Below are positions 46,692 to 63,496 of a stretch of DNA of 64,000 nucleotides, one piece after another. The notes beneath the pieces were generated by a model that saw nothing but the letters and a program-made list of their open reading frames with translations, had not been told where the DNA came from and ran no database searches. Numbering within the stretch: position 1 is the first letter of the stretch; the number at the start of each line of letters is the position of its first letter. Origin of the DNA: a virus; IMG/VR virus record IMGVR_UViG_3300030098_002339, positions 24,285-88,284 of that record; one strand, 5' to 3'. Made by a program: the position numbers and the translations under genes.

Positions 46692-47014
46692 ATATTATGT
46701 TGTCTTCTACTAGCTTCTAAAGTTCTAAAGAGATCTATAATTAGACCTTCTTTATCTCTTTTATTACCCATTGTAGCTGACTTAACTTCAGCCTGGAATA
46801 ATTCTTCAACAGCATTCTTATAAATATCTGAAGCATAAAAGCCTTGCTCTTTAGCAGATATAGATTTTAATTCTCTATCATCCATTATAAATAATGCTTT
46901 CTTTCTCTTTAATAATCTATCTAGATACTTTACATTAGCATTAGCTTCTGCACTCTGTTCATCAGTATCACTTAGATATTTTAGAGCTTTCTCTAATCGT
47001 TCTTCTGTTATCAT
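46688..47014 (-). CDS. UvsY-like helical protein (unit C)
   Basis: Homologue of 3286. Confidence 0.6.
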   Translation of the reverse strand: MITEERLEKALKYLSDTDEQSAEANANVKYLDRLLKRKKALFIMDDRELKSISAKEQGFYASDIYKNAVEELFQAEVKSATMGNKRDKEGLIIDLFRTLEASRRQHNI

Positions 47015-47244
47015 TTTTCACCTACTTTTTTACAATACGTTAAAAATACTTTATATTCTTTATTATCAATCTTATAAAATACTCCTTCATATTTTTGTTC
47101 ACCTGGTTTACTATATGTATTTTTTACTACATATTCTTCGCAAGTTTGATAATCCACAAATTGTTGTTTCAGAACATATTTCATTCCTAACTTTTGTGGA
47201 TTGATTTCGCTGGGTGCTATTAATAGCATTAATAATTCTATCAT
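47011..47244 (-). CDS. Small exported hypothetical protein
   Basis: AAGGA SD; 2 Cys as in 3729. Confidence 0.6.
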   Translation of the reverse strand: MIELLMLLIAPSEINPQKLGMKYVLKQQFVDYQTCEEYVVKNTYSKPGEQKYEGVFYKIDNKEYKVFLTYCKKVGEK

Positions 47245-47363
47245 ATATTCCTTTTATTAAATGACAAAGTGGGCTCATTTATATTTATACATTTGTTCTA
47301 TGTTGAACCCACTCGCCACGCTATGCTTAAGAGGGAGATGATTCGTCAGCATAGCAATTCGGT

Positions 47364-47819
47364 TTAAAACTGATCGTTAAATTCATCAGGATTTTCTTTA
47401 GCAGATAATATCTTTCTTACATATCCATCTACTTTAGTAAAATCAATTTCTTTACCTGATTGAATTGATGCAGCCATTAAATTACTCATAGTCAATCTAT
47501 ATTTTTCTTCCCATTGACCAGATTTAATTGGTGCAGATTGAACAGCATTTGGTACAGGTACACTAGCAGCAACTTCGCCACCTAGTAACTCAACTGACTT
47601 TGCAGTTTGATACCATTTACCATTCTTGCTTTGTCTTGCAGGCATTGCAATGATTTTTAATCTTGCACCTTTCTGCCAACCTTCAGCACCTACTGCTTCA
47701 CCATAAATAGTCATATCATTACCATCATCTTTGGTAACGTAAATACTATATTTACCGCCACCATCTCTTGATGCAAATGATTTCTTATGTGAGCATTCAA
47801 ATGTTTCTAGATTTTCCAT
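47364..47819 (-). CDS. SSB-like protein (unit C)
   Basis: Homologue of 4053; AGGAGG SD before MENLETF. Confidence 0.65.
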   Translation of the reverse strand: MENLETFECSHKKSFASRDGGGKYSIYVTKDDGNDMTIYGEAVGAEGWQKGARLKIIAMPARQSKNGKWYQTAKSVELLGGEVAASVPVPNAVQSAPIKSGQWEEKYRLTMSNLMAASIQSGKEIDFTKVDGYVRKILSAKENPDEFNDQF

Positions 47820-47874
47820 ATTCCTCCTTTTATTTAATTGTTTAACTATACTACCTATTCGTTGCATATATACC

Positions 47875-48672
47875 TCATTTCCAGGCTGTATGCCATATCT
47901 TTCTTGCGAACGCTTCAGCACCTGGCGAATATCTCCATCTCCAGTTGTCGAATGTCAAAGGAAACATTCGTACAACGTCTTCCTTTGTTTTCGCTATTCC
48001 TAAGATATGTTCTATCGATTTAAAGGCTTGGATTAAAGTTTCTAAACATCCTACATGATCTCCTAAATCAGAAGTATGATGATCCCAAGCAGATGCATAT
48101 AACAGTAAGCATTCTTTATTGAATAACTCACGATATAAGAACTGCTGCCTTAAATGATCGGGTTTAGGGTGATAGTTATGATTAATTCTTCCCTTTCTCC
48201 CCTTATGTCTTTCTGCTGCAGTTGGAGCATATCTCCAAACTTTAGCAGTCGCTTTAGTATCAACGATATAATCATTGAACTCAAAGTCTGTCTTCGCAAC
48301 TACTGGCAAACATAGATCCTTATAAGGACCATTATATTCCCTTTGATAATGAATTAATTTACCATATTGTTTTAATTCTTTAACAAATGTATTTGCTATT
48401 TGAGCAGTCCATTCGTATTCATCATCAATGGTTCCTCCGTTTTCACCACATCTTTCTATGTATTTACCTTTAGCATCACTTATGATAAGTTTTTCATCAG
48501 TGATTTGATTTACTAATGCATGATGAGCTGCTTCTTCCGCAGCGTGTCCCATTCGCATTCTTGCATTCTCTTCTGTTTCGAATCCGTATATTTTTTCTAT
48601 GATCCACATTTGCGGACAATCAATAAACGTATTACCAGCAGAAGCTGAATGATGTTCTATAACTTTCAACAT
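47875..48672 (-). CDS. PD-(D/E)XK exonuclease (unit C)
   Basis: Homologue of 4576. Confidence 0.85.
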   Translation of the reverse strand: MLKVIEHHSASAGNTFIDCPQMWIIEKIYGFETEENARMRMGHAAEEAAHHALVNQITDEKLIISDAKGKYIERCGENGGTIDDEYEWTAQIANTFVKELKQYGKLIHYQREYNGPYKDLCLPVVAKTDFEFNDYIVDTKATAKVWRYAPTAAERHKGRKGRINHNYHPKPDHLRQQFLYRELFNKECLLLYASAWDHHTSDLGDHVGCLETLIQAFKSIEHILGIAKTKEDVVRMFPLTFDNWRWRYSPGAEAFARKIWHTAWK

Positions 48673-48685
48673 AATTTTCTCCGTA

Positions 48686-48978
48686 TGATTGTTAATATTC
48701 AAAAGTACTTATGTAGTACTTATAACATATCCCTTGAAACTTTGAAGGGAAAAAAACCAATAAAAGATAAAGATGAGTATAATAAATACAACTTATCTAT
48801 TATCTTATGTTGGCTATTGCTACCTACGCAACGCTGGGGTAGCAAAAGCCTTATAGCTCGTTTCCACGGGTGTAAGCATAAGAATAGGGTATATCGTCTT
48901 ATTCGCTTCTATGAGTCTAATAGAGGCTTTAAACGCTATGTTAATGAGGCTATAAAAGGGTATAAATGCGACAAATAG
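48686..48978 (+). CDS. DnaA-C-like HTH protein (unit C); start approximate
   Basis: IARFHGCKHKNRVYRL identical to unit B. Confidence 0.55.
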
Positions 48979-49463
48979 AAAAACCAGAACTTATCTCTAC
49001 AGTAATGGATAAGAAGAAAGTATGGTTAAATATAAGAGAATCTCGCCTCTTATATATGTTTCATCGCAAGCTCATTTCTTGGGAAGAATATGAAGCTGGT
49101 TCCAGATACCGATTAATGTGTGAACTCCAAGGTGGAGGTACAGGTAATGTTCTTAAAGAACGTACTGATGGTGGAACTCCAGATTTTATGACTATGCAAA
49201 TAGGGGCAGCACTAGCAATAGCAGAAGTGGATGCTGAACTTGGTGAAGATAATGCTAGAAATATGAAGTTATTTTGCCATGAAAATTATGGTATTATTGA
49301 AATTGCACATATGCTAGGTAAGTCAGAACGTAGTACTTCTTTTTTAATTCACGAAGGTTTAGCTAGATTAGCAGTTTATTATGGGTACAAAAAAGTTAGA
49401 CATACCATCAGGAGACAAGGTACAAAGGTTAAGAGACAAGCAATATCTGAAATTTGTAAGTAG
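48966..49463 (+). CDS. Sigma-70 region 4-like regulator (unit C)
   Basis: Homologue of 5660. Confidence 0.7.
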   Translation: MRQIEKPELISTVMDKKKVWLNIRESRLLYMFHRKLISWEEYEAGSRYRLMCELQGGGTGNVLKERTDGGTPDFMTMQIGAALAIAEVDAELGEDNARNMKLFCHENYGIIEIAHMLGKSERSTSFLIHEGLARLAVYYGYKKVRHTIRRQGTKVKRQAISEICK

Positions 49464-49806
49464 ACAACCTTGCTTACTTTGTTTAACTCCTAAGTGTCAG
49501 GCACATCACTTAACATTTGCTATGCCACGTGGAATGAGTCAGAAAACTGGAGATCAATGGGCAGTTCCTTTATGTCCTGCACATCATTCTCAGCTGCATT
49601 TATGTGGCAAAAATGAGAAGGATTTTTGGAAAACACTAGATATAGATGCTGAAGATATAGCTTGTATACTATATCAATGGTGGTTAGATCAGAAAGTTTC
49701 TAAAGAATTTTTTACTGATGAGTCAATACTTTGGGTCAAGATCTATAATAATCTTGTACCTAAGATAAAGAAAAATATTGACTTTCTCATGCAACCCAAA
49801 CTATAG
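49381..49806 (+). CDS. DUF968/Ref-like nuclease (unit C)
   Basis: Homologue of 6075. Confidence 0.8.
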   Translation: MGTKKLDIPSGDKVQRLRDKQYLKFVSRQPCLLCLTPKCQAHHLTFAMPRGMSQKTGDQWAVPLCPAHHSQLHLCGKNEKDFWKTLDIDAEDIACILYQWWLDQKVSKEFFTDESILWVKIYNNLVPKIKKNIDFLMQPKL

Positions 49807-49838
49807 ATTGGAATATCCTCGCCAGAGGTATGTTTATT

Positions 49839-50123
49839 ATGGCTAAAATATATAAATTTCCTAAAGGTAAAAAGTTATATTCTCAAAGGTTTATACAGAA
49901 TATAAACCCTAATGCTATAGGTGATTTTATCCAAAAACAAAATCCACACCTTTCTTTAAGAGCTGCAGATGCTATGGCTCTAGCTATTATTTATAGTACA
50001 CATTTAAAATTAGTTTTTGAAGAAGAAGGATCTCAGATTCCTATTGATGTCATGGAAGATTTTGAGGAGAACGATCATAAAAGTTTTTTGTGGAATAAAC
50101 ATGGTCCAAAGACGTTACATTAA
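49839..50123 (+). CDS. Conserved hypothetical protein (unit C)
   Basis: Homologue of 6535. Confidence 0.75.
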   Translation: MAKIYKFPKGKKLYSQRFIQNINPNAIGDFIQKQNPHLSLRAADAMALAIIYSTHLKLVFEEEGSQIPIDVMEDFEENDHKSFLWNKHGPKTLH

Positions 50124-50379
50124 AAAGAAAAAGCCTAATAAAGATTTTCCTTATAAACCTATTCCTAAGCATTTGCTTTGGCAAGATGCTCAATCACAAA
50201 CAGGTTGGTTAACTAAAGAACAAATGGATAAACTTAGACCTGCACAGTCTAAAACTAAAGGATGGATTTATGAAGAAACTCAAGATTATATTAAGACGTT
50301 TGGAACTTACTCTATAGATTCAGAAGATGAATCAATTGAATTTGGGGAAGTAATTTGTATTCCTAAGAATTGGATTTAA
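50101..50379 (+). CDS. Conserved hypothetical protein (unit C)
   Basis: Homologue of 6794. Confidence 0.75.
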   Translation: MVQRRYIKKKKPNKDFPYKPIPKHLLWQDAQSQTGWLTKEQMDKLRPAQSKTKGWIYEETQDYIKTFGTYSIDSEDESIEFGEVICIPKNWI

Positions 50380-50380
50380 T

Positions 50381-50670
50381 TAATGGCTTTGTTCTCAAAA
50401 CTGTTTTCCTCCCGTGTTAATTCACAACACTATGTTAATTCATAGTGTACCTGGAATAAATTTACTCGAACTTCTCAGGTTGCTAAATACTTAGCTCCAC
50501 AGTCATTATTTCGATACCATTAACGAACCAGGCAGTCTCCCACCTGGTTAGCCGAAGTGATGGCTTTTTTAAATAGGTCGTCACCCTAAAACTGGACATT
50601 TTAAGTACCTCCAATTCTTTTACGACAGATCGGTACACCATTCACTTCTATCTGATCTAGAATCAGAATT
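50381..50670 (-). ncRNA. Candidate large pseudoknotted ncRNA
   Basis: No ORF in the track; many helices, GAAGTGA/TCACTTC long-range pairing, twin GAATTAAC loops. Confidence 0.65.
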
Positions 50671-50674
50671 CTGT

Positions 50675-50932
50675 TCACTCATCGTGAATTGGTTCAAGTG
50701 GATTAGTGTAAACTTCTTCTACAGTAGCTCCACCTAGTTCTATAATTCTTTTTTTTGTCGCAATAATTTCAGCTTTAACATGATCTTTACTATGTTCTAA
50801 AGCAGTAACTAATTTTGGAAAATTAGTAGGATATATTCCATAAATAGTTAAATCGTTAATTGCTGTCGCTACTCTTTGAAGACCTCTTTGTCTTTTTTCT
50901 AACCTGAGTATCTCGCTGTCTGGAGTTATCAT
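50675..50932 (-). CDS. Conserved early protein (unit C)
   Basis: Homologue of 7147. Confidence 0.8.
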   Translation of the reverse strand: MITPDSEILRLEKRQRGLQRVATAINDLTIYGIYPTNFPKLVTALEHSKDHVKAEIIATKKRIIELGGATVEEVYTNPLEPIHDE

Positions 50933-51074
50933 TTAGTTTCCTTTCTCTCTGATTTTCTGCTTCCATACGTTCACATTCAGATTCATTTTCCATTTCTTTT
51001 ACTTTACGTTTTAACTTATCTATTTCTAACTGCTTACCAGCTAGTAATGCTTTCCATTGTCCATCATTTACCAT
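50856..51074 (-). CDS. Early hypothetical protein
   Basis: KQLEIDKLKRK also encoded at ~7460-7545 in unit B. Confidence 0.65.
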   Translation of the reverse strand: MVNDGQWKALLAGKQLEIDKLKRKVKEMENESECERMEAENQRERKLNDNSRQRDTQVRKKTKRSSKSSDSN

Positions 51075-51279
51075 TTGTCCTCACATTTTCTATTTGTTCA
51101 CGTAAATATTCTATTCGATGTTTATACTCTTTAATCCAGTTTTGAATAATAAGATTATGTTCATCAAATAAAAATCCACAAGCTATAGCATTATCTAGCA
51201 CAGATACACTTTCGATGCAATCATCGAGTTCATTCTGTGCTTGCTCTATTTCTTTAGCTCTATTAACAGTTATTTTCAT
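51064..51279 (-). CDS. Early hypothetical protein (unit C)
   Basis: Homologue of 7521. Confidence 0.7.
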   Translation of the reverse strand: MKITVNRAKEIEQAQNELDDCIESVSVLDNAIACGFLFDEHNLIIQNWIKEYKHRIEYLREQIENVRTNGK

Positions 51280-51575
51280 ATTACACCTGCTTTTCTAAGT
51301 TTATTAATATTATCATCAACTTGTTTAGCTAAATTTTGATTATCCTTAATAAGCTCGTTATTTAATTGTCGAAGATCACCATTAATTTTCTTATGTTCTT
51401 CATTAATATTTAATAAATCAGTTATACGTCTATCTTTTTCTAAAGTATCTATTTGAGCTTGTTCTCTAACTAAAGCAAGCTCTTTCTCATAATGATCTAT
51501 TTTTTTCATCATGAGTTCATCAGTTTCTTTTTTAACTTTCTCTATTTCAATAATATGTTTCCAATATTCACTCAT
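51276..51575 (-). CDS. Coiled-coil early protein (unit C)
   Basis: Homologue of 7852. Confidence 0.75.
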   Translation of the reverse strand: MSEYWKHIIEIEKVKKETDELMMKKIDHYEKELALVREQAQIDTLEKDRRITDLLNINEEHKKINGDLRQLNNELIKDNQNLAKQVDDNINKLRKAGVI

Positions 51576-51910
51576 GCTGCATCATCCTGCACTTTCTGTA
51601 TTACACATACATGACCTGCAATGAAATCTCCAGGAATAATTTGATGTTTTGTTTTCTTTGCCCATTTATGCCATGCATCTGTAATATTTTTATTAATAAT
51701 AAATGGATGTTTTAATTTAGATTCTTCATCCATCCATAGATCAGTATATCCATCTTTACGATTAGAATACTTTGGTAAATATCCTGTAGTTCTTTCAATC
51801 ATTCTACAGTCTATTTCCTTATACATATCTTCGAATGTAGGTTTCATTTTATAAGGATCTGATTTAATAGATCCATCTGTTCTAAATGTATGTAATTTAT
51901 AACTACTCAT
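51572..51910 (-). CDS. DUF3846-like protein (unit C)
   Basis: Homologue of 8124. Confidence 0.65.
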   Translation of the reverse strand: MSSYKLHTFRTDGSIKSDPYKMKPTFEDMYKEIDCRMIERTTGYLPKYSNRKDGYTDLWMDEESKLKHPFIINKNITDAWHKWAKKTKHQIIPGDFIAGHVCVIQKVQDDAA

Positions 51911-52217
51911 TTTTCCTCCTTTTTTAATAATAAGCTATACCTTCCTGTATCAGTATTAAATGCAAGATCTGCTTCAGATCCATCTAACAATGAACCTGCA
52001 TCAGTTACATCATAATCTAATTCTTTTTCCAGAAAGTTTTGTATAGCCACTCGTATTTCATATATATCAGTCATTTTTTTTTCTTTTCTTCTTATTTTCT
52101 ACGATTTGTCTTTTAACTCTTTTTTTTAATTGTTTGTTCATTTTGATAGTCTTATCTTTTTTAACATCAATATAATAAACAGGCATAAAGTCTAATAGAT
52201 CTTTCATTTTTTTCATC

Positions 52218-52604
52218 TTACCAACTACAATTATAGGTTACTTCTCTACCAGCTTTTAATGCTTTTCTTGCAGCTCTTAAAAACTGTTTATCAAGTTCTT
52301 TATACTCTTTCACAGACTCTTCTTGGTATTGTTGTCCCCAAAAGAATCCATCAGATGCAAAGTAATCATAGTAACCATTCTTAATAGCTGTTTCTAATCT
52401 ATCTAAGATTTCATTAGTAATGTTTACTGGTCCTCCATTAAATCCTAAATGAGAAAGACCTCCTTCGTTTTCACTAGCTTTCTCTTCTCTAGGATTTTGT
52501 TTGTTATACTCTTCTGCCATAAACACTTGTAATCTTGCGTGTTTACGCCAATAGAACTCCTTATTGAGTCCATCTGCATATTGATCAAGTCCCATATTTA
52601 TCAC
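52218..52604 (-). CDS. Conserved phage protein (MGLDQY...YWRKH family), unit C only
   Basis: MGLDQYA, YWRKH, GFFWG, Y.CSW motifs; absent from unit B. Confidence 0.7.
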   Translation of the reverse strand: MINMGLDQYADGLNKEFYWRKHARLQVFMAEEYNKQNPREEKASENEGGLSHLGFNGGPVNITNEILDRLETAIKNGYYDYFASDGFFWGQQYQEESVKEYKELDKQFLRAARKALKAGREVTYNCSW

Positions 52605-52851
52605 CTATTTCTTTCATCTTTTTACCCATATCTGTAGTCAAAATTAATTCTTCATATCTTTTAATTTCAGCCTTCAGATGTTCAGTTATTTTTAATCCTA
52701 AATCTTTAGGTGTTATTTTAGGATCAACATTTGCTATAAAATTTACTGTATCTTGTATAGCATATAAACCTCCAGTCCATCTAGCATGATTCTGTTGATC
52801 GACTGTATCATTTAACATTTGTTTTATATCCATTTTTTTCCTTTCTACCAA
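52585..52851 (-). CDS. Hypothetical early protein
   Basis: GAAAGGA SD before MDIKQM. Confidence 0.6.
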   Translation of the reverse strand: MVERKKMDIKQMLNDTVDQQNHARWTGGLYAIQDTVNFIANVDPKITPKDLGLKITEHLKAEIKRYEELILTTDMGKKMKEIGDKYGT

Positions 52852-52971
52852 AAATTTTCCAATATTTACGTAGAATAATTTCTGGTATTTGTTTCTTTTT
52901 ATATTTTGATGTATCTATTTGTGATACCCAAATTGCAAAGGACATTATTTTTTTCATATTAATTCCTTTCT

Positions 52972-53008
52972 AGGGCATTAAGCCCTACACACAGTTAGGG
53001 CTTATGCC
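52972..53008 (-). promoter_or_regulatory. Conserved intergenic hairpin
   Basis: Homologue of 9448-9483. Confidence 0.7.
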
Positions 53009-53017
53009 AATTAGTAT

Positions 53018-53350
53018 TTAAGCTGATTTTCGTTCAACTTTACTCGTTTCACTTATCTGTTCAAGTTTAGCTGCAACATCTTTTGCTTTCGCTGCATCTA
53101 TTAACTTATGACCTCTAATTACTATCGTAGCAGCAGCAGTTTGTTGTCCGATTATATTTCCTTGTCGTACACCTAACTCCTGTATTACTTGATCAGCAAT
53201 CTTAATCTGCATTGCAATATTCTTATACATTTTATAATACTTGCTATGCACTCTGTTATATAGTTCTTGACTAGATTCTGTTTTCTTTTGACTCGATTGG
53301 TTCAACATCAATAACGTCTCCTTTCTTGTCACGTTTTTTCTTAATTTCAT
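53018..53350 (-). CDS. Hypothetical early protein (unit C)
   Basis: Distant homologue of 9490. Confidence 0.65.
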   Translation of the reverse strand: MKLRKNVTRKETLLMLNQSSQKKTESSQELYNRVHSKYYKMYKNIAMQIKIADQVIQELGVRQGNIIGQQTAAATIVIRGHKLIDAAKAKDVAAKLEQISETSKVERKSA

Positions 53351-53471
53351 AAGGCATTTCTAGTCTGTCAGGCATATTCTTTTCAACTGCATTGACTATA
53401 CCTACGACTATCCTTACTGGTAATGTTAATCCTCGAATTAACATATCACCGTATTTTTCTACTCGCTTCAT
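53271..53471 (-). CDS. Hypothetical early protein (unit C)
   Basis: Homologue of 9719. Confidence 0.7.
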   Translation of the reverse strand: MKRVEKYGDMLIRGLTLPVRIVVGIVNAVEKNMPDRLEMPYEIKKKRDKKGDVIDVEPIESKENRI

Positions 53472-53655
53472 CGTATTCTCCTTTCTTTTTTCTTAATCGA
53501 TTATACTTTTCTTTGGCTGCGTAGAACTCTTTATCAAATTCCTTTGTTCCAGGAATTGGATCAACATCAGCGGTGAGCCAATTCCATGCTTTTCTTACTG
53601 TTACAGCAGCAACGCTATAAGCAATAAATCGAACAAAATTAATAACTCCATTCAT
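53446..53655 (-). CDS. Hypothetical early protein (unit C)
   Basis: Homologue of 9900. Confidence 0.75.
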   Translation of the reverse strand: MNGVINFVRFIAYSVAAVTVRKAWNWLTADVDPIPGTKEFDKEFYAAKEKYNRLRKKKGEYDEASRKIR

Positions 53656-54048
53656 TTACTCCCTTTCTTCTCTATGATCTTCTAACTTAGAATCATACTT
53701 AGTTAGGTCTTCAAAGAATGTATTTATATCAGTATCTGTTAATTCACAGAACTTCCATAAATTTCTTAATCCGATAGCGTTCATTCCACATTCGTATTTT
53801 TGAACTTGTTGAAATGTTACGTCTAACATAATTGATACTTTGGTCTGAGTTAGATTCTTTTCTAATCTTATCTTTCTTAACTTCATACCAATTACTCGTG
53901 CAAATACACTAGGTACTATGTCATTATTATTTCTTATTGTTTCATCTATTTCTATTTGACATAACTCTGGTGTTTTGAACTTTCTTATTTGTCCTGTTCT
54001 TGCGCTCATATGTATCTTTCTCCTTTCCATATAGTTGTTTGTAGACAA
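53656..54048 (-). CDS. XRE-family HTH regulator (unit C, divergent)
   Basis: LTQTKVSIMLDVTFQQVQKYECG. Confidence 0.85.
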   Translation of the reverse strand: MSTNNYMERRKIHMSARTGQIRKFKTPELCQIEIDETIRNNNDIVPSVFARVIGMKLRKIRLEKNLTQTKVSIMLDVTFQQVQKYECGMNAIGLRNLWKFCELTDTDINTFFEDLTKYDSKLEDHREERE

Positions 54049-54313
54049 GCAACTCTCGTTTGCCAGAGGTGCTTGGCTTTGTTATTACTCTAATCGATGG
54101 TTTCCCATCTCTATATACTTTAACTAATTGAATCCATCCTTCACTTGGATATAGTATTTCGAGCATTATTGGTTTAATCCAATATCTCTTCCACCACTTG
54201 ATATGTTCACTCTGAATAGATCCTGTAAATGGTTGATGATACATCACCCTACTTACTATACTCAGATCTATTCTTCTCTCTTTGAACTTTCCTTTTAGTA
54301 TTACTTTGAACAT
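53942..54313 (-). CDS. Conserved early protein (unit C)
   Basis: Homologue of 10430. Confidence 0.75.
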   Translation of the reverse strand: MFKVILKGKFKERRIDLSIVSRVMYHQPFTGSIQSEHIKWWKRYWIKPIMLEILYPSEGWIQLVKVYRDGKPSIRVITKPSTSGKRELLVYKQLYGKEKDTYERKNRTNKKVQNTRVMSNRNR

Positions 54314-54549
54314 TCTTTTTCCTTATCCAATATTCAGCATCCATCCTTTTAGTTGGATGATTCATTATTTCTGATAATTTAACTATTGTATATTTCATCT
54401 TTCCATCCAAGGTTTAATTGCAAATAGTATCAATACTAAGAGCACTATCATATATAGTTCCTTACTCTGTATTGTATTCCAAAATGAATCTATTGCAAGT
54501 TGTATTATTGTAGGCTCCATACTCTCTATCCTTTCAGTTTAAAATTTTT

Positions 54550-54898
54550 TATAGTCTACCATAGTTGCGTAGTGCCCTTGCGGAGTGACACGTACCCAAG
54601 TACTAACTACCACGTTAGACTAGGCATATAGTAGACTATACGATATATTATATATATCTCACACGTGCTTGGATTTTTTCTAGCCTGTGTTTCCACAGGA
54701 TGTATTACACTTGCAAATGTAATAACTGCCAAGCAACTACCAGGTGCATAAGCACATTAGGTTAACTCTAGATTTTACATCTAGAATTACAAGTAGTACA
54801 CTACTCATCTGGCTCTCAGGATTTATCCCAAACACCAGACTCTCGCTACCTTATCGCGTTAACCAAACGATTCTTCAGTCAACGTGAGAGATATATAT
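54550..54898 (-). ncRNA. Candidate two-domain multibranch ncRNA
   Basis: Closing helices 54550-59/54631-40 and 54650-66/54882-98; GAAA and GCAA tetraloops on minus strand. Confidence 0.65.
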
Positions 54899-54905
54899 TT
54901 TTTTC

Positions 54906-54940
54906 AGGGCTATGCCCTGCACTAAGCAAGGGCATAACCC
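54906..54940 (-). promoter_or_regulatory. Hairpin of the 9448/52972 type
   Basis: GGGTTATGCCCTTGC-loop-GCAGGGCATAGCCC. Confidence 0.6.
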
Positions 54941-54949
54941 ATATTATAT

Positions 54950-55123
54950 TTATTTCTTATCAACTAATGCTTTAATCATATCTTTTAATTCAGCTAGTTC
55001 TTTTCTAACTTGAACAAATGATTGATGTGTAGCATATGGCTGATGTTTCTTATTATCCCAGTTCTTGTTTAACCAAGCAACTTTTTCATTGGGAGTCTTA
55101 CCATTCATAGGTTGTACAGACAT
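54950..55123 (-). CDS. 57-aa early protein (not in ORF track)
   Basis: GAAAGGAG SD; MSVQPMNGKTPNEK...; positional analogue of 11071. Confidence 0.6.
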   Translation of the reverse strand: MSVQPMNGKTPNEKVAWLNKNWDNKKHQPYATHQSFVQVRKELAELKDMIKALVDKK

Positions 55124-55173
55124 ATTATCTCCTTTCTGATAATAAATATCACTATCGCTAGAGCCAGTGATAT

Positions 55174-55305
55174 TTAAACTATTTCTTTATTTTCGTCCTT
55201 TAAACTCTTAAAGAACTTATAACTAAACACACCACTTGCTACCATCACTGCTAATTGTATAGAGAGATAGATAGCTAATAGAGTCATTACTATTGTAGTT
55301 AACAT
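55174..55305 (-). CDS. First early gene: 43-aa single-TM protein (not in ORF track)
   Basis: GAAAGGA SD; LLAIY shared with 11469-11606. Confidence 0.65.
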   Translation of the reverse strand: MLTTIVMTLLAIYLSIQLAVMVASGVFSYKFFKSLKDENKEIV

Positions 55306-55686
55306 CTTATCCTTTCCGAGCTCGATTCTATGCTAGAATATAGCTCTTTCTGTGTGACTATTTGATAATCATCAATCAATATCATCAATGTTATCAAGGG
55401 TTAACGAGTGATTCGGTAATCAATATATCAATGGATTTAGCCCAATGTATACCGACTACCGAAGATAAACAAACAACAACAAAATTGTTGTCGATTTCGC
55501 TAGAAATATCGACAACTATTTTAAATAAAAACAAAGACGAATTGCGACAAAGTTGTCGCTAGCAATTCGACTGTCATTTTAATGACGGGTTTGAAATTCA
55601 CCCTGATCACATCGAGATTGATCTCGATTGATCAAATAGGGGGGTTTTGTACAGCAACAACACAACAACGAAAGAAGGAGGAAACT
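55306..55686. promoter_or_regulatory. Early/late divergence region with hairpin array (unit C)
   Basis: Same blocks and hairpin order as 11607-11972. Confidence 0.7.
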
Positions 55687-55953
55687 ATGGCATTACCATT
55701 CGCAGCAGGTTCTGTAGGGATGAGATTCCTAAGAACACTCTACAAAGGTAAGAAGAAGATTGGCAAAGGAGCTTCAATGGCAGCGGGATACGCTGGCAAA
55801 AAAGGCTTCGTAAAGACTAGCCAAGCAATTACAGGTGCTTCAAAGAAAGTACATAGAGGAACTATGTCCGCTAAAAGTTTAGCGAAAAAATACCCAAAAT
55901 CGACTGCAGCCATCGGTGGTGCAGCGGCTTGGGATATGCTTGATCGTGACTAA
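55687..55953 (+). CDS. Small basic protein (unit C)
   Basis: AGGAGG SD; homologue of 11973. Confidence 0.75.
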   Translation: MALPFAAGSVGMRFLRTLYKGKKKIGKGASMAAGYAGKKGFVKTSQAITGASKKVHRGTMSAKSLAKKYPKSTAAIGGAAAWDMLDRD

Positions 55954-56084
55954 TGGCTAAGAAACCCAAATGGGGTGTTAACACCTACGTCAAACGAACC
56001 AAGCCTCAAATAGGCAGACATAAGAAACGGATGAACAAGGACGAAAAACGATCCTATAAAAAATACAGAGGACAAGGCAAATAA
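55953..56084 (+). CDS. 43-aa YRGQGK basic protein (not in ORF track)
   Basis: Homologue of 12227. Confidence 0.75.
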   Translation: MAKKPKWGVNTYVKRTKPQIGRHKKRMNKDEKRSYKKYRGQGK

Positions 56085-56554
56085 TGGCAACAACACTAAC
56101 AGCAGCAACATTAACTGTGACATTAACAGAGGCAATTTCGTTAAACGGATATGACCAGGGATCAAAGAATACCCTAAGCATAGCCAGCATTAACGAAGTC
56201 CATAAGCGTATTCTAACAGTCCCAACTTCAGAAATAGAAGTTTTGGCTATGAGTACCGCTAATGCTTCTGGGACTTTCATAGAAGGCGATGTACGATATA
56301 TTCGGATCACTAATTTAGATGATACGAACCATGTAACTCTTACCTTCAAAAATGAAAACGATGATGAGTTCGCAGTTAAACTAGACAAAGGACAATCCTT
56401 TATCTACAATGGCGACCTATCAGGAGGAGTCGTAGATACGATGGATGGCATAGACGGAACAGGATTAACAGTTTCCTTGGGGGACCTGGTAAATATAACT
56501 GCACTTGCAGATACTGCCGCTTGCGATCTAGAAGTATTTGTGGCTTGCGTATAA
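56084..56554 (+). CDS. Conserved beta-rich protein (unit C)
   Basis: Homologue of 12362. Confidence 0.75.
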   Translation: MATTLTAATLTVTLTEAISLNGYDQGSKNTLSIASINEVHKRILTVPTSEIEVLAMSTANASGTFIEGDVRYIRITNLDDTNHVTLTFKNENDDEFAVKLDKGQSFIYNGDLSGGVVDTMDGIDGTGLTVSLGDLVNITALADTAACDLEVFVACV

Positions 56555-56712
56555 TGAAATATCCATTAGGATTACCTTATACAGTCATCAGTAGTCTTTC
56601 AGCTAAAACTTTAAAAAAGAGCTGGAAGAAACGGGATCAGTTTATTAAAAATTTAAAGAATCCTAAGTTCAGAGCAAAAGCTAAACTGAAGGATTATAAA
56701 ACAGTACTATAA
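56554..56712 (+). CDS. Small basic protein (unit C)
   Basis: Homologue of 12832. Confidence 0.6.
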   Translation: MKYPLGLPYTVISSLSAKTLKKSWKKRDQFIKNLKNPKFRAKAKLKDYKTVL

Positions 56713-56951
56713 TGGCTAAACGATCATTAGAAAAATTAGCAGATAAAATTATCCAATTAACTCCTGAAGAAGGACAACAATTGGGTTTAATTATAAGAGC
56801 TAAGATGTTGCCAGAAATGGCAAAGAAACAAGCTGGATTATTAGAACAAGCAGCGAATAATCCACAGATGGCACAAATGGGACAACCACGTGGTGGTCAA
56901 ATGCCTATGCCAACTTCAAGACAAGCTGCGATGCAAGGACTATTAAGATAA
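56712..56951 (+). CDS. Conserved hypothetical protein (unit C)
   Basis: Homologue of 12983. Confidence 0.75.
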   Translation: MAKRSLEKLADKIIQLTPEEGQQLGLIIRAKMLPEMAKKQAGLLEQAANNPQMAQMGQPRGGQMPMPTSRQAAMQGLLR

Positions 56952-57031
56952 TGAAAAAGAAAAAAAATAAGAAGAAGAAAAATCAAAAGAAAAAGAAGAA
57001 CAAAAAAAAGAATAAGAAAAAAGGGAGATAG
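56951..57031 (+). CDS. 26-aa poly-Lys peptide (not in ORF track)
   Basis: MKKKKNKKKKNQKKKKNKKKNKKKGR; TAATG coupling. Confidence 0.5.
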   Translation: MKKKKNKKKKNQKKKKNKKKNKKKGR

Positions 57032-57041
57032 AAAGGTAAAT

Positions 57042-57119
57042 ATGCCAAAAGGAAAAGGAACATACGGGTCTAAAAGAGGTAGACCTCGTAAAAAAAACAA
57101 AAAGAAAAAAAGAAAGTAA
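57042..57119 (+). CDS. 25-aa AT-hook peptide (not in ORF track)
   Basis: MPKGKGTYGSKRGRPRKKNKKKKRK; AAAGGT SD. Confidence 0.6.
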   Translation: MPKGKGTYGSKRGRPRKKNKKKKRK

Positions 57120-57128
57120 AATACTAAT

Positions 57129-57440
57129 ATGGCAAATGTTAATGGAAATTGGAAAGGCGGTAAAGCAGTAGTTAAGTATTCCAAAGCTAAAGCTAAGGGA
57201 AGAAAAGCTGCTGGTCAAATTGCTAGAAACTACAAAAGATATGTTAGCCCTTCTGTTAAAATATTAAAAGGAGCAACAGGCTTAGCAGCTGGTGCTGGTA
57301 AACTAGCTTTAAGATTTCCTGGTACAGGTTTAGTTGCAGCTGGTTTATATGCTGGAGCTAAAGGTATTGCTAAAAGACAGAAGGGTTTAAAATTTCCTCA
57401 ATATAGACAATTTAATAAACGAGGAAGAAAGATCATCTAA
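57129..57440 (+). CDS. Basic protein (unit C)
   Basis: Homologue of 13336. Confidence 0.7.
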   Translation: MANVNGNWKGGKAVVKYSKAKAKGRKAAGQIARNYKRYVSPSVKILKGATGLAAGAGKLALRFPGTGLVAAGLYAGAKGIAKRQKGLKFPQYRQFNKRGRKII

Positions 57441-57817
57441 TGAGTGAAGATAAAACACAAGAAAACAAAGTTGAAACTAAAGAAGAAGGTCCTTTAGACA
57501 AACCTAATTATTGGGGAGTCTTAGGAAGCAAAAAACCTTCTAATAAAGGTGGAAAACGTGAAGGAGCTGGAAGACCATTAGGTTCTAAAAGCACAAAACC
57601 TAAATGGAAATCTATGGATGAGATGTCTGTGAAATATCAACATTCCCCTTTAGATTATATGTTATCTGTGTTAAATAATCCTATGAGCTCACCTGAGAGA
57701 AAGATGTATGCTGCTGAAAAATCAGCTCCATATATTCATCCTAGGTTAGCTTCTTCAACAGCAAGAATAGGATCAGATGAACCAATCGAAATCAAAGTCC
57801 AATGGCAAAAAGATTAA
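57440..57817 (+). CDS. terS: Terminase small subunit (unit C)
   Basis: Homologue of 13554. Confidence 0.8.
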   Translation: MSEDKTQENKVETKEEGPLDKPNYWGVLGSKKPSNKGGKREGAGRPLGSKSTKPKWKSMDEMSVKYQHSPLDYMLSVLNNPMSSPERKMYAAEKSAPYIHPRLASSTARIGSDEPIEIKVQWQKD

Positions 57818-59075
57818 GCGAATTGAAATTCCTTATAAGCCAAGACCTTATCAATTAGAAGTACACGATAATAAAAAACGATTTAATGTATTAGTCTGTC
57901 ACAGACGATTCGGTAAATCAGTATTATCCATTAACGAATTAATTAAAACCGCAGCAGCAAAACCGAGAGCTCTGCTGGCTTTCATAGCTCCTACCTATAG
58001 ACAAGGAAAATCTATAGCTTGGGAGTATTTAAAATTTTATACGAAACCTCTAATGTATTTTGGAGGAAGTAGGAACGAGACTGAATTAAGAATAGATTTA
58101 TTTAACGGAAGTCGTATTCAAATATTTGGTGCAGATAATCCAGACAGCATCCGTGGATTAGGATTTGACGGAGTGGTTATGGATGAATATGCAATTATGT
58201 CACCTAGAGTTTGGACAGAGATCGTAAGACCTGCTGTATCAGACAAACTAGGATGGGTTATGTTTATCGGAACACCCATGGGACATAATCAATTCTGGGA
58301 AGTCTATGATTACGCCCAACGAGGTCATAAAGACTGGATGGGTAAAATCTATAGAGCCTCAGAAACCAAGGTGATTCCAGACGAGGAGCTGGCGCAGGCA
58401 CGTTCCATAATGACCGAAGAGCAGTATGACCAAGAGTTCGAATGCTCTTTTACTGCAGCGGTCTCAGGAAGTTATTACGGAAGATTAATAACGAAAGCCG
58501 AAAATTCTAGAAGAATCGGATCCGTGCCTGTGGATAGTAACGTAGGTGTAGAAACGTGGTGGGATTTAGGTATAGGTGACTCAACAGCAATTTGGTTTGC
58601 TCAACGAGTGGGAAAAGAAATACACCTTATAGATTATTATGAAACTTCAGGAGAATCTTTAGCACACTATGCAGATAAACTTGAAGAAAAAGGATATGCT
58701 TATTCTAATCACATAGCTCCACACGATATAATGGCTAGAGAATTAGGAACAGGTAAATCAAGAATGGAAGTTGCTAATGAATTGGGTATTGATTTTGAAG
58801 TAGCTCCTAAGTTAGAAGTAGATCACGGAATTGAATCTGTGAGAAATTTATTACCACATTGTTATTTTGATAGAGAAAAATGTAAACTAGGATTAGATGC
58901 ATTAAGACAATATCGAAAACAATGGGATGATAAAAACCAAGTGTTTAAAAATAAACCTCTACACGATTGGTGTTCTCATGCAGCTGACGCATTTCGATAT
59001 GGCTGTGTATCTGAACCGATTGATATGACGGAGTGGAATAAACCAATTAAAGTAGATACCAAATATATAGTATGA
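57777..59075 (+). CDS. terL: Terminase large subunit (unit C)
   Basis: Same motifs as 13813. Confidence 0.95.
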   Translation: MNQSKSKSNGKKIKRIEIPYKPRPYQLEVHDNKKRFNVLVCHRRFGKSVLSINELIKTAAAKPRALLAFIAPTYRQGKSIAWEYLKFYTKPLMYFGGSRNETELRIDLFNGSRIQIFGADNPDSIRGLGFDGVVMDEYAIMSPRVWTEIVRPAVSDKLGWVMFIGTPMGHNQFWEVYDYAQRGHKDWMGKIYRASETKVIPDEELAQARSIMTEEQYDQEFECSFTAAVSGSYYGRLITKAENSRRIGSVPVDSNVGVETWWDLGIGDSTAIWFAQRVGKEIHLIDYYETSGESLAHYADKLEEKGYAYSNHIAPHDIMARELGTGKSRMEVANELGIDFEVAPKLEVDHGIESVRNLLPHCYFDREKCKLGLDALRQYRKQWDDKNQVFKNKPLHDWCSHAADAFRYGCVSEPIDMTEWNKPIKVDTKYIV

Positions 59076-61222
59076 AATCAGAAAAAGAAATATTAGCAAT
59101 ATTAGGAAAAGAATTACATAACGCTTCTGGATTTATTGGAGGCGAATTAGTTGCTCGAAGGAAAAAATCCTTAGAGTACTACCTAGGAATGCCATTAGGG
59201 AACGAACAAGAAGGTCGTTCTCAAGTGGTATCTAATGATGTATTAGATACAGTTGAAAGCCTCATGCCATCTTTAATGAGAATCTTTACAGCTGGCGATA
59301 ATGTATTTAATTGTGAAGGTGTTGGACCAGAAGACGATGAAATGGCACGTCAATGTTCCGATTACCTTAATTATATTTTTTATAAAGAGAACAATGGATT
59401 TGTAGCTCTTTATTCTGCATTTAAAGATGCATTGATCCAAAAGAATGGAATCTTAAAAGTTTATTGGGATGATTCTCAGAAAACTGAAAGAGAAGAATAT
59501 ACAAGATTAACGGATGATGAATTTAATGATCTCGTTGCAGATCCTCAAGTTAAAGTTAAAAATCATTCAGAATACGAAGAACCAATAACGGATGATCGTG
59601 GTAAAGAAATTGATAAAGTTGCTTTACACGATGTTGTTATTCATAGAACAAGATTGTACGGACAGGTTAAAATTGAACCAGTTCCTCCAGAAGAATTTTT
59701 AATTGAACGTAGATGTAAATCTATTGATGCTTCCCATTTTGTTTGTCATCGAACAACAAAAACAAGAACAGAACTTATTGAAATGGGTTTTCCCAAAGAT
59801 GTCGTAGAAGGATTACCTGCAGGCGATGCAGATTATTTTACGGAAGATAAGTTTGTTAGACATCAAAATATTGACCTACAGCACGGAGCTGCTGATGGAG
59901 ATAAAGGCACAACAGATATTACAGTTCATGAATGTTATATTAACATTGATGTTAATGAAGATGGTAAATCAGAATTAGTTAAAATCATTACAGCAGGTAG
60001 CGGTACTGGTAAAATTCTAGATTTAGAAGAAGTTGATACTATACCATTTATATCAATGACACCCGTTATTATGCCACACAGATTTCATGGCAGATCTGTG
60101 TCGGAATTAGTAGAAGACATCCAACTTATTAAGTCTACTGTTATGAGACAAATGTTAGATAATATGTATCTAACAAACAATAACAGAGTTGCAGTACAAG
60201 ATGGTCAAGTTGCAATGGATGATCTTCTAACTAACCGACCAGGTGGAATCGTAAGAACAAAACAACCTCCTCAAAATGTTATGATGCCTATTCAGGCACA
60301 ACCAATTACGGAACAAGCTAGTGGAATGTTAGCTTATCTAGATTCTGTTAAAGAAACTAGAACAGGGGTTACAAGACAATCCCAGGGGCTAGATGCTGAT
60401 ACCTTAAATAAAACAGCAACTGGACAAAACCAAATTCTGACACAATCACAAATGAGAATGGAGTTAATTGCCAGGATCTTTGCTGAAACAGGTGTTAAGG
60501 ATCTAGCTTTAAAAATATTTGAATTGGTATGCAAGTATCAACAAAAGGAAAAGATAGTAAGAATTAGAGGAAAATACATTCCTATGAGACCTTATGAATG
60601 GAAAGACAGAGTAAATGTTACTGTTCAAGTAGGTTTAGGTACAGGTTCTAAAGAACAACAGCTAATTTTATTAAATGCAATCTTAGAAAGACAAATGCAG
60701 GCAATAAACTTACAACAAAATGTCTATGGACCTATGGTAAACCTTAGAAATGTATACAATAGTTTAAAAAAATTAATAGAAAATGCTGGATTGAACGGAA
60801 TTGAGCCATTTTTCATGGATCCTGACGTTGGTGCAGCACAAATGCCACAACTTCCACCTAAACCACCAACAGAATTTGAAAAAGTGACGTTGGCTCAGGT
60901 TCAAGGTGAAAATCAGCGTGAACAATTGAAAGCTGAAGTAAGATTAAAAGAAGTTGAAGGTAGAATGAGACAACAATTGCTTGATTTTGAGATAAAAATT
61001 AAAGAATTAGAACTTAAATACGGATCTAAAATCGATGAACTTGAATTGAAACGTAGAACTATGTTAGAAGAAGTAGATCTTCAAAAATCTGGAGATTTAA
61101 TGAAAGAAATAGTGAAAGGACAACAACAATTCTTTAATGATGGACAAGCTAGAAACACAGCTGCGAAGGGGAAAGAGAGCCCAGGTGCTGCTAGACGATC
61201 CCCTGCTAAAGCAAGGGTTTAA
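59072..61222 (+). CDS. Portal protein (unit C)
   Basis: Homologue of 15117. Confidence 0.92.
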   Translation: MKSEKEILAILGKELHNASGFIGGELVARRKKSLEYYLGMPLGNEQEGRSQVVSNDVLDTVESLMPSLMRIFTAGDNVFNCEGVGPEDDEMARQCSDYLNYIFYKENNGFVALYSAFKDALIQKNGILKVYWDDSQKTEREEYTRLTDDEFNDLVADPQVKVKNHSEYEEPITDDRGKEIDKVALHDVVIHRTRLYGQVKIEPVPPEEFLIERRCKSIDASHFVCHRTTKTRTELIEMGFPKDVVEGLPAGDADYFTEDKFVRHQNIDLQHGAADGDKGTTDITVHECYINIDVNEDGKSELVKIITAGSGTGKILDLEEVDTIPFISMTPVIMPHRFHGRSVSELVEDIQLIKSTVMRQMLDNMYLTNNNRVAVQDGQVAMDDLLTNRPGGIVRTKQPPQNVMMPIQAQPITEQASGMLAYLDSVKETRTGVTRQSQGLDADTLNKTATGQNQILTQSQMRMELIARIFAETGVKDLALKIFELVCKYQQKEKIVRIRGKYIPMRPYEWKDRVNVTVQVGLGTGSKEQQLILLNAILERQMQAINLQQNVYGPMVNLRNVYNSLKKLIENAGLNGIEPFFMDPDVGAAQMPQLPPKPPTEFEKVTLAQVQGENQREQLKAEVRLKEVEGRMRQQLLDFEIKIKELELKYGSKIDELELKRRTMLEEVDLQKSGDLMKEIVKGQQQFFNDGQARNTAAKGKESPGAARRSPAKARV

Positions 61223-61400
61223 AGATCTCTTAGAAACTTACAAAGACGAAATTTTTAATACGAATTTTGCTGACGATGAAAAACGTAGATCCCTTTGGAT
61301 GGCATATAATATGCTAGACAAAATACGAGGGCATTTACAGACAATCATGGAAAGCGGAAAACTAGCTCAAAAAGATCTTGAGCTTTTAAACAAGAGCTAA
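61137..61400 (+). CDS. Conserved head-region protein (unit C)
   Basis: Homologue of 17185. Confidence 0.75.
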   Translation: MMDKLETQLRRGKRAQVLLDDPLLKQGFKDLLETYKDEIFNTNFADDEKRRSLWMAYNMLDKIRGHLQTIMESGKLAQKDLELLNKS

Positions 61401-61445
61401 CCTTTATAGGAGCTCACTTACGTCAACCAATAGGAGGAACGTTAC

Positions 61446-62441
61446 ATGGCACAAGAACAATCAGTTCAAGGTGCTGCTGAAAAAATATCTGGATTACTGA
61501 ATCCTAAACAGGACAATCAAGTACCAGAGAAGAAAGAAGCAGCTCCCTCAGAGCAACCTGAAAAGATCAAACAGGAACCTTCAAAAGAGAGTCAATCAAA
61601 GTCTGAAGAAACTCCCAAAGAAGTAGCTACTGAAAAAACCGAAATCGAAGAAGAAACGCAAACAGCTACAGAGGAACCCGAACTCCACCGAGTTAAAGTT
61701 AGTGGTCAAGAGTTAGAGGTTACCCTCGATGAGTTGAAAGCAGGTTATTCACGAGACTCGGATTATAGACAAAAAACTCATACTTTAGGCTTAGAGAAAA
61801 AAGATCTTGAAGCTCAAAAGCAGAGTTTGCGTCAATCTTATGATACTCGTTTATCAGAACTAAACGAAATGATTACAACTGCTGACAGTTTTGTCAGACA
61901 ACAACAAGGTAGTAAGGATCTCCAAAAACTTTATGATGAAGATCCCACATCTGCAGCTAAACTGGATTACCAGTTACGACAACAAAATAGGCAGATAGAG
62001 GAAATGAAGTCTAAAGCTCAAGAGGCTTACACAAAACAATACAATGAATACCTTGATATACAGAAACAGTTAGCAGCAGCTAAAATCCCAGAATATAGCG
62101 ATCCCAATAAAGCTGATCAATTCAGAACTAATATGCGTACAACACTACGTGGATATGGTTTTAATGATACAGAAATTGGAAACCTGGCAGATCACCGTTT
62201 TTTAATGGTGATTAAAGATGCAATGAGTTATAAATCTGTTAAAGATAAAAAACCTATTGCCCAGAAGAAGGTAGCAAATGCACCTAAAGTCGTTAAAGCT
62301 GGAGTAGCTAAATCAGGACCAAGTTCAGGTAGAGAGGAAATAAGAAACAAGATCAATCGCTTAAAGAAGACTGGGCATCTTCGTGAAGCTCAAGACGCAA
62401 TAAGAGATATGATCAATCTTAAATCTCAACAAAAAAGGTAA
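61446..62441 (+). CDS. Capsid scaffolding protein (unit C)
   Basis: Homologue of 17497. Confidence 0.88.
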   Translation: MAQEQSVQGAAEKISGLLNPKQDNQVPEKKEAAPSEQPEKIKQEPSKESQSKSEETPKEVATEKTEIEEETQTATEEPELHRVKVSGQELEVTLDELKAGYSRDSDYRQKTHTLGLEKKDLEAQKQSLRQSYDTRLSELNEMITTADSFVRQQQGSKDLQKLYDEDPTSAAKLDYQLRQQNRQIEEMKSKAQEAYTKQYNEYLDIQKQLAAAKIPEYSDPNKADQFRTNMRTTLRGYGFNDTEIGNLADHRFLMVIKDAMSYKSVKDKKPIAQKKVANAPKVVKAGVAKSGPSSGREEIRNKINRLKKTGHLREAQDAIRDMINLKSQQKR

Positions 62442-62447
62442 TAAACA

Positions 62448-63389: not shown

Positions 63390-63400
63390 TAATATAACAA

Positions 63401-63486
63401 ATGCGTAGGCGGGTAACCTCAAATTCTACCCGCCTTGCATCCTAATTAACATTGAAGTCTTGAGAGGGGTTAAAGGCGGAACAATG
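63401..63486 (+). ncRNA. Kissing-loop element downstream of MCP (unit C)
   Basis: Covarying homologue of 19449-19531. Confidence 0.65.
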
Positions 63487-63496
63487 AGGAAACAAA

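Follow-up and report, generated by a model that had tools for sequence, protein, structure and literature searches.

Positions 54550-54898 (minus strand) of the viral DNA analysed here raise the question of which RNA, if any, is encoded by a strongly folding stretch of about 350 nucleotides (nt) among the small genes of a phage, and whether that RNA serves the gene behind it or acts on its own. The DNA is a window of 64,000 nt, namely bases 24285-88284 of the 88,284-base IMG/VR virus record IMGVR_UViG_3300030098_002339, and coordinates given below without a locus name refer to this window. An initial annotation had proposed a two-domain, multibranched and early-expressed RNA of unknown function. 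The conserved part of the element, domain 2 (54650-54898), bears the core of a known RNA, manA (RF01745), and is thus not the wholly unknown kind of RNA that had been assumed; judged by its sequence, it is best filed as a manA-class variant, one that the family model fails to recognise and that is not a member by Rfam's criterion. The element is probably an enlarged manA variant that is carried on an optional cassette and acts as a free-standing, self-associating phage RNA rather than as a gene switch, and within this reading the assignment to a manA-class structured RNA is far more secure than the part that concerns assembly.

Covariation Supports a Structured RNA on the Minus Strand

The minus strand of 54540-54945 (406 nt) folds with a minimum free energy (MFE) of -152.2 kcal/mol (z -9.59), which was equalled by 0 of 100 shuffles, and domain 2 alone has a z of -6.89. 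Every helix named in the initial annotation was found in the sequence at its place. A small open reading frame (ORF) had been put forward as another explanation of the region, but the largest ORF inside the folded part encodes 47 amino acids (aa), and none is longer. Domain 2 begins with the 5' arm of its closing helix P1 (AUAUAUAUCUC-U-CACGU, 54882-54898), which pairs with 54650-54666 in 16 AU-rich pairs and is directly followed by UGACUGAAnAAUC, a short hairpin and GAUAAGGUA. This manA signature core (UGACUGAAGAAUC, short hairpin, GAUAAGGUA; 54847-54881) is the single match to the core pattern in the window, with 0.00 expected by chance. The loop of the core hairpin holds the 5' arm (GGUUAAC, 54858-54864) of a long-range or kissing helix, whose partner is GUUAACC at 54760-54766. 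On the 3' side lies a three-way junction (54667-54734), which is composed of P3 (GCUUGG/CCAAGC, 54729-54734 with 54667-54672), the conserved CAGUU, the hairpins P3a (TATTACA/TGTAATA, 54704-54723, with the palindromic apex UUGCAA at 54711-54716) and P3b (CCUGUG-GAAA-CACAGG, 54684-54699), and an A-rich strand that ends in AAUC; P3, P3a and P3b are supported by covariation.

Altogether, 29 distinct full-length homologues of domain 2 were collected from viral and marine contigs. A blastn search with 54400-55000 gave no match in 50,697 phage records, and when the element was compared by blastn with the records of three relatives, chance words only were returned. In two relatives, L019 and L015, the 5' part (domain 2) alone is present, in diverged form. 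A pattern derived from three sequences (TATATNTCTNNNNNTGACNGAANAATC) is present in 10 stretches of IMG/VR, while a looser core pattern (TGACNGAANAATC-N9-15-GATAARGTA) has at least 120 matches in IMG/VR and at least 120 in a metagenome collection, many of those listed having quite different flanks. In a MAFFT alignment of 23 distinct sequences (A5), onto which the structure of the window's helices, including the long-range helix, was laid, 93.0% of 1077 cells are paired as compared to 79.3% after shuffling, and 33 of 48 pairs have changed on both sides (18.8 +/- 2.1 shuffled). The covariation score of A5 is 0.422 versus 0.178, none of 500 shuffles reached the alignment in any measure, and partners slid out of register score 0.02-0.12; P1 is paired in 99.7% of its cells. 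A covariance model built on A5 (R1), and therefore on 23 sequences of the subtype and no canonical manA, scores 196.6 bits over 54649-54899 and gave 41 matches of 98-240 bits in 252 sources, with no match in 12 relatives that do not have the element. The R1 searches omit the window's own record (L001) as well as second copies of searched contigs (L005, L006, L011, L012, L014, L022, L026, L028, and L031).

A model-guided alignment of the 29 full-length sequences (A7) has 96.5% of the cells of P1, P3, P3a and P3b paired versus 79.7% in shuffles, 29 of 40 pairs changed on both sides versus 16.2 +/- 1.7, and a covariation score of 0.514 versus 0.185 that was reached by 0 of 500 shuffles (slid controls 0.03-0.11), although these pairing figures are inflated by the fitting of A7 to the model structure. 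By helix, P1 (16 pairs) is paired in 100% of cells with 12 pairs changed on both sides, P3 (6 pairs) in 100% with 5 changed, P3a (7 pairs) in 86.2% with 7 changed and P3b (6 pairs) in 95.3% with 5 changed. Besides the fitting of A7, two further points weaken the comparative case, namely that the 29 sequences fall in few clades, so that cell counts overstate the number of independent events, and that the core lacks covariation support, since its two flanking AC/GU pairs are invariant in 29 of 29 sequences and its hairpin consists of two invariant pairs and a U-G. For domain 2 the structural conservation that the initial annotation had wished to see in homologues was nevertheless borne out by covariation; for domain 1 it was not.

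The same alignments bear on the alternative that the structure is one of DNA. The plus strand of 54540-54945 also folds better than shuffles (MFE -121.9 kcal/mol, z -7.84), and the long AT-rich inverted repeats and the palindromic hexamers TTGCAA, TCTAGA and GTTAAC would suit an element that acts at the level of DNA, for example as an origin, as a packaging site or as an array of protein-binding palindromes, and that folds only when it is single-stranded or forms a cruciform. However, 94 G-U cells face only 6 A-C cells and pairing falls from 93.0% to 84.9% when the alignment is read on the other strand, and this excess of G-U fixes the strand as minus, as the initial annotation had claimed for the structured RNA that the 29 homologues now support. 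Moreover, contigs from RNA libraries lie on the element (see below), its core is common to an RNA family whose structure has, according to a preprint, been solved as RNA (bioRxiv 10.64898/2026.07.01.735769), and its optional presence among close relatives is unsuited to an origin or a packaging site. A DNA-level element is consequently regarded as highly improbable.

The long-range helix, proposed in the initial annotation as GGTTAAC/GTTAACC, was confirmed by the homologues. A duplex of 7-11 base pairs (bp) is present in 23 of 23 of them, all 7 pairs change on both sides, and among about a dozen sequence versions native pairs have a mean of -9.6 kcal/mol, compared to -6.9 kcal/mol for non-native ones. 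In the shorter clade the downstream arm lies in a hairpin loop, hence the interaction there is a kissing complex. The apex of P3a reads UUGCAA in 26 and UUCGAA in 3 of the 29 homologues; both hexamers are self-complementary, so that the GC-to-CG swap preserves this property, while the stem varies freely.

The region between the two arms of the long-range helix (54767-54846) is variable and contains hairpins 1-3 (TCTGG/CCAGA, AGTAG/CTACT, and TCTAGA/TCTAGA); it can be aligned only within the closest clade of four sequences. Hairpin 1 shows compensatory changes there, and the AGTAG/CTACT hairpin competes with a long-range helix seen in the other three clade sequences. An alternative 5' helix (CACGUUGACUGAA with UUGGUUAACGCG), which was returned by the single-sequence MFE and by RNAalifold on the four close sequences, is invariant in the clade; by our reading it cannot form in L019, and it was dropped as an alternative that the homologues do not support. 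Comparison with the close relative L007 is uninformative as to conservation of the element versus its flanks, given mismatches of 0/348 in the element, 2/702 plus two indels in the upstream flank, and 5/143 and 8/124 downstream.

Relationship to the manA Class

The link to manA is one that the Rfam model itself barely registers. At gathering thresholds no Rfam family matches the whole window, the manA model finds nothing in 54300-55200 at expect values (E) up to 10 nor anywhere in the 88-kb record, and a search of 54300-55200 against Rfam gave two chance-level matches only. When 54640-54900 was searched alone, manA was the sole family of 4227 to be returned, with model positions 25-60 matching at 8.4 bits (E 7.6). 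The Rfam check suggested in the initial annotation was thus negative at gathering thresholds and positive as a weak local match at the core.

What the sequence shares with manA is a set of blocks in the same order. P1 is followed by UG-AC-UGAAUAAUC, a hairpin and UAAG-GU at 54847-54898, which is the layout of the Rfam consensus, and P3 abuts the 3' arm of P1, is preceded by AAAAAAU and has its loop expanded by two hairpins. Central hairpins are present but cannot be aligned with the manA model, and the pairing that encloses them has a different topology, as it joins the core-hairpin loop to a downstream UUAACC-type segment. When 14 loci with the looser core pattern were searched with Rfam, the pattern lay inside a manA RNA above the gathering score in four (L037, L046, L036, and L043), and ten other such loci included three with sub-threshold manA matches (L059, L033, and L075). 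R1 matches the Rfam-validated manA RNAs at the same coordinates, with 23.1 bits in L037, 21.4 bits in L046, 21.7 bits (local) in L043 and 17.3 bits in L036; the corresponding E-values of 0.03-0.5 come from a short calibration and are rough. Against other core-bearing elements R1 scores up to 34.9 bits (E 8.2e-5, likewise rough).

Several points speak against so close a relationship. The local match of 8.4 bits falls short of the manA gathering threshold of 55.2 bits, the subtype loci L062, L143, L080, L019, L015 and L029 and eight further ones have no manA match, and the kinship would rest on a 35-nt core, the order of the blocks and weak reciprocal model matches. The subtype is uncatalogued in Rfam 15, and no description of it was found in the literature searched, although the alignments of Weinberg et al. 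(2010) or the 8,495 IMG/VR candidates of PMC10690425 may include fragments of it. A variant that is invisible to the Rfam model implies that the manA class is wider than the catalogue suggests.

An Optional Cassette in a Small-ORF Operon

The carrier of the element is a marine podophage. Its portal protein is of the SU10 type, the best cultured relative by this protein is Pelagibacter phage HTVC106P (50% identity), and the DNA of the window is present in marine metagenome runs. Two related phage genome units lie in tandem within the window, with a period of ~43.4-43.9 kb and 68-86% identity between them. The units stand head to tail (1850-20066 versus 45244-64000), an arrangement that may reflect either a true tandem or the joining of two co-occurring strains into a chimera during assembly. 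The structured RNA sits in the second unit (unit length ~43.5 kb) and shares its strand with a leftward small-ORF operon, which includes a helix-turn-helix regulator and begins ~500 nt upstream of the RNA, at the divergence from the structural genes. The operon is presumably early, as inferred from gene order only, and the early expression claimed in the initial annotation, which has this same basis, is not supported as it was written. No transfer RNA (tRNA) or transfer-messenger RNA (tmRNA) gene was found in the window. A promoter scan of 54200-55800 gave 10 sigma-70-like sites versus 7.4 +/- 2.6 expected and nothing usable, and none of three terminator-like sites falls between 54360 and 55470.

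Within this operon the element is an optional cassette. The close relatives L002, L003 and L004, which were fetched via the neighbouring 123-aa protein, have an empty site: in L002 and L004 the upstream hairpin and one AAAAAAT are followed by the junction TTTAAACTGAAAGGAATAGAGAGTATG, and L003 is alike, while in the window ~340 nt separate two copies of AAAAAAT. One copy belongs to the cassette junction, AAAAAAU UUUAAACU GAAAGGAUAGAGAGUAUG (54518-54549, minus), which includes the ribosome-binding site (RBS) and start codon of a 41-aa ORF (54395-54520), and AAAAAAU is found again at 54898-54904. Each genome unit has one copy of the junction motif, which in the other unit lies at 10817-10834, before a 129-aa ORF. 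In the close relative L007 the element is followed by two extra ORFs, each of which is preceded by a copy of the junction.

Presence or absence at one site, a single AAAAAAT in the empty sites of L002, L003 and L004 as compared to a copy on both sides of the filled one, and a 16-17-bp AT-rich inverted repeat at the ends would also be expected of a small non-autonomous mobile element, similar to a miniature inverted-repeat transposable element, with P1 as the terminal inverted repeat, AAAAAAT as the target-site duplication and folding as a by-product. Such elements are multi-copy, yet this one is single-copy in the 88-kb record and no further copy was found elsewhere in the relatives' records, and because of this the AAAAAAT repeat is read as a recombination junction between cassettes. 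It is better read in this way also because the junction motif bounds ordinary ORF cassettes, as with the extra ORFs of L007. Furthermore, 22 of 23 loci have the element in the same slot, immediately behind a gene-end hairpin, its internal helices covary, and its unpaired core nucleotides are invariant and common to manA RNAs, which makes a mobile element of this kind very unlikely.

Precise absence from relatives, a length of ~340 nt and a multi-branched fold are likewise features of a self-splicing intron or another known ribozyme that has been inserted between genes. Group I introns require G as the last intron base. Here the only freedom in placing the boundary is within the 7-nt AAAAAAU, therefore the last base cannot be a G; no group I, group II or small-ribozyme family was matched in Rfam at E up to 10, and the element lies between genes, not within one. 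This explanation is scarcely tenable, and the optional, manA-like RNA cassette remains the preferred reading.

The junction was also observed more widely, in that GAAAGGA(A)TAGAGAGTATG, often after AAAAAAT, precedes successive small ORFs in the window (54518-54535 and 10817-10834) and in L007 (1850-1869 and 2140-2160). It borders the places where the cassettes of relatives, be they ORFs or the RNA, differ, and is likely a recombination hot spot at which accessory genes are shuffled.

On the 5' side of the RNA, a GC-rich hairpin (54907-54940, minus) follows the stop codon of a 57-aa ORF, and the initial annotation had linked it to the RNA as a possible processing site. Of the 23 homologue loci, 22 have a hairpin of differing sequence here, but it is present at the empty sites of L002, L003 and L004 as well, hence it belongs to the upstream gene and its cassette and not to the RNA; as no T-run follows, it is not terminator-like.

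In the other genome unit no manA-type RNA was found with Rfam or the core pattern. A different stretch of ~130 nt occupies the same slot there (10820-11070, minus); it is flanked by AAAAAAAT, has a z of -2.28, does not have the manA core, and contains CUAUGUAGAGU, which is common to a module behind the manA-like RNA in L258, L161, L024 and L025. A further stretch that is specific to the second unit (50380-50700, minus; z -3.58) replaces 144 nt of the other unit (7076-7219) and is a non-coding RNA candidate by its moderately good predicted folding; the initial annotation had listed it separately, and it is not flanked by the AAAAAAT junction.

Domain 1 and Other 3' Modules

The remaining part of the element, domain 1, is a 3' appended hairpin domain (54550-54640, minus; z -3.15) that is closed by UAUAGUCUAC/GUAGACUAUA; the closing stem TATAGTCTAC/GTAGACTATA lies at 54550-54559 and 54631-54640. 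In the minus-strand reading GTAC-TTGG-GTAC and CC-GCAA-GG are present in it. The 91 nt of domain 1 comprise a solid closing stem of 10-14 bp and an ambiguous interior, for which the MFE structure and the centroid are at odds. When IMG/VR was scanned with 18-mers for domain 1, only one other copy was found, that of L007, which is identical and thus gives no comparative information. Homologues carry other modules in its place or none, so the two-domain unit of the initial annotation is not conserved, and domain 1 is a lineage-specific appendage, one of several interchangeable 3' modules. Its stem would most likely protect the 3' end of the RNA. For CGCAACTATGGTAGA, considered as a motif common to domain 1 and the other genome unit, 2 matches versus 1.17 expected when up to 3 mismatches are allowed lend no support; the copy in that unit has an indel and went unscored.

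Behind the manA-like RNA of other loci three structured modules recur, one of which ends in a stem and a T-run, and no Rfam family matches any of the three. The first is found ~100 nt downstream of the RNA in L258, L161, L024 and L025, the second in L143, L180 and L220, and the third in L027, L029, L030, L197 and L200; the third has AUAGUCUA and AUAUGCCUAGNCUAA in common with domain 1.

Free-Standing RNA or Leader of the Next Gene

The main rival to a free-standing RNA is a cis-acting leader or riboswitch that senses a metabolite or factor and controls translation or read-through of the next ORF. manA was rated a riboswitch candidate in 2010 (Weinberg et al., 2010; PMC2864571), and its type in Rfam is still cis-regulatory, though it has been without a ligand since that proposal. 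The element is oriented like its flanking genes and lies upstream of an RBS and a start codon, and in 4 of 23 homologues (L019, L207, L089, and L076) an RBS and start codon follow ~10-20 nt after P1, a spacing that would allow cis control and tells against a free-standing RNA.

However, what follows the RNA varies across the 23 homologue loci, with at least five unrelated ORF starts by our reading, so that no constant class of downstream gene is seen. In the window the 91-nt domain and the junction part the RNA from the ORF, and in 4 of 23 copies the module behind it ends in a stem and a T-run before any ORF. Close relatives in which these flanking genes are kept do not have the element, and no conserved alternative pairing of the terminator/anti-terminator type was found, the alternative 5' helix of RNAalifold being invariant in the four-sequence clade. 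Among the other manA-core elements listed, 46 of 147 have a tRNA or tmRNA gene within 300 nt, always on the same strand. The differing downstream ORFs, the modules with stem and T-run and the occurrence of manA-core elements near tRNA genes argue for a free-standing rather than a cis-acting RNA, and for this branch the behaviour as an optional cassette, with varying genes behind it, speaks against the riboswitch reading first proposed and points to a trans-acting or structural role. A cis-acting leader is hence considered unlikely, if less so than the other explanations weighed above, and a free-standing RNA is preferred.

Canonical manA RNAs were observed directly beside permuted or alpha-type tmRNA genes, within tRNA arrays and on the same strand, in L043 (921-1446), L046 (2433-2843) and L036 (1452-3384). 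This suggests that in those phages canonical manA is co-transcribed and processed with stable RNAs.

As regards transcription of the region, on which the initial annotation had depended, contigs from the RNA libraries of three studies lie on the element. A contig of 359 nt on 54529-54887 bridges both domains, and contigs from two other studies cover 54667-54857 (191 nt) and 54664-54845 (187 nt). On the other side of the balance, these contigs show presence in RNA libraries and not ends, strand or level, carry-over of DNA is possible, and the contig ends (54887, 54529, 54664-54667, and 54845-54857) lie on sequence common to variants and may thus be assembly break points. In the runs X15, X16 and X18 no contig lay on the flanking coding sequence and in X17 only the flanks were covered, at depth 2; such uncovered parts are not taken as evidence.

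A Proposed Mode of Action

For canonical manA, a 2026 cryogenic electron microscopy preprint describes pentamer-based decamers and a 60-mer cage that are held together by intermolecular kissing loops, and calls these RNAs the first natural short RNAs to form icosahedral-like cages (bioRxiv 10.64898/2026.07.01.735769). By analogy, a mode of action can be proposed in which the RNA would act as a free-standing molecule and not as a switch for the next gene. The 16-bp AU-rich helix P1 clamps the two ends of the molecule together, and copies would join by loop-loop pairing as canonical manA does in that preprint. The loop pairing of 7-11 bp may form between neighbouring copies, while the palindromic apex of P3a could give a two-fold contact between them. 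Such an assembly might be used as a scaffold or as a sink while the host is taken over.

The assembly part of this proposal has to be set against three considerations. Self-assembly is carried over from canonical manA, for which the source is one unreviewed preprint; the long-range helix may be purely intramolecular; and the UUCGAA apex is confined to one lineage (L015, L024, and L025). It is possible, though we hold it to be rather doubtful, that the subtype has a distinct self-assembling architecture, in which the palindromic two-fold contact, the rewired loop pairing between molecules and the rigid 16-bp clamp would produce a closed RNA-only particle or lattice of a geometry unlike the manA decamer or 60-mer, which would be made by marine podophages at the start of infection and would sequester a host factor or protect a cargo.

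Comparison With Known Systems

Phage phi29 encodes pRNA, a non-coding RNA that is transcribed early and assembles into a ring via intermolecular loop-loop pairing. Packaging depends on it and all relatives are known to have it, in contrast to the manA-like RNA, which is absent from close relatives; no similarity in sequence or fold is known, so the comparison is one of analogy only. ROOL and GOLLD are ORF-free, highly structured RNAs of phages and prophages without a known function that form multimeric cages. Both are much longer (~580-800 nt) than the present RNA, which has no Rfam match to either family. Long RNA multimers are also alluded to in the manA preprint (bioRxiv 10.64898/2026.07.01.735769).

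The closest comparison is with canonical manA, an orphan class since 2010. In both, P1 leads straight into (G)UGACUGAAUAAUC, a hairpin and GAUAAGGUA, the flanking pairs being AC/GU. Both also have a central region of several hairpins, in which a UUAACC-type segment is used for pairing with a loop, and a last hairpin that has AAU at its end and abuts the 3' arm of P1. The order of these blocks is the same; both are phage-borne, marine and without a known biological function. The subtype differs in its distance from P1 to P1 (226-291 nt versus roughly 145-170 nt in manA), in its P1 of 16 AU-rich pairs (5-6 in manA), and in its core hairpin, which is cut to 2-4 pairs and whose loop, unlike that of manA, is now the partner of the UUAACC segment. 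Also unlike in manA, the terminal hairpin is enlarged to a three-way junction with a palindromic apex. Furthermore, the subtype resides in the small-ORF operon of podophages, with a tRNA or tmRNA neighbour in 0 of 29 cases as compared to 46 of the 147 manA-core elements listed. The subtype thus extends the manA class to small marine podophages and, with its relocated kissing partner, added palindromic loop and long clamp helix, offers a natural experiment in rewired assembly interfaces.

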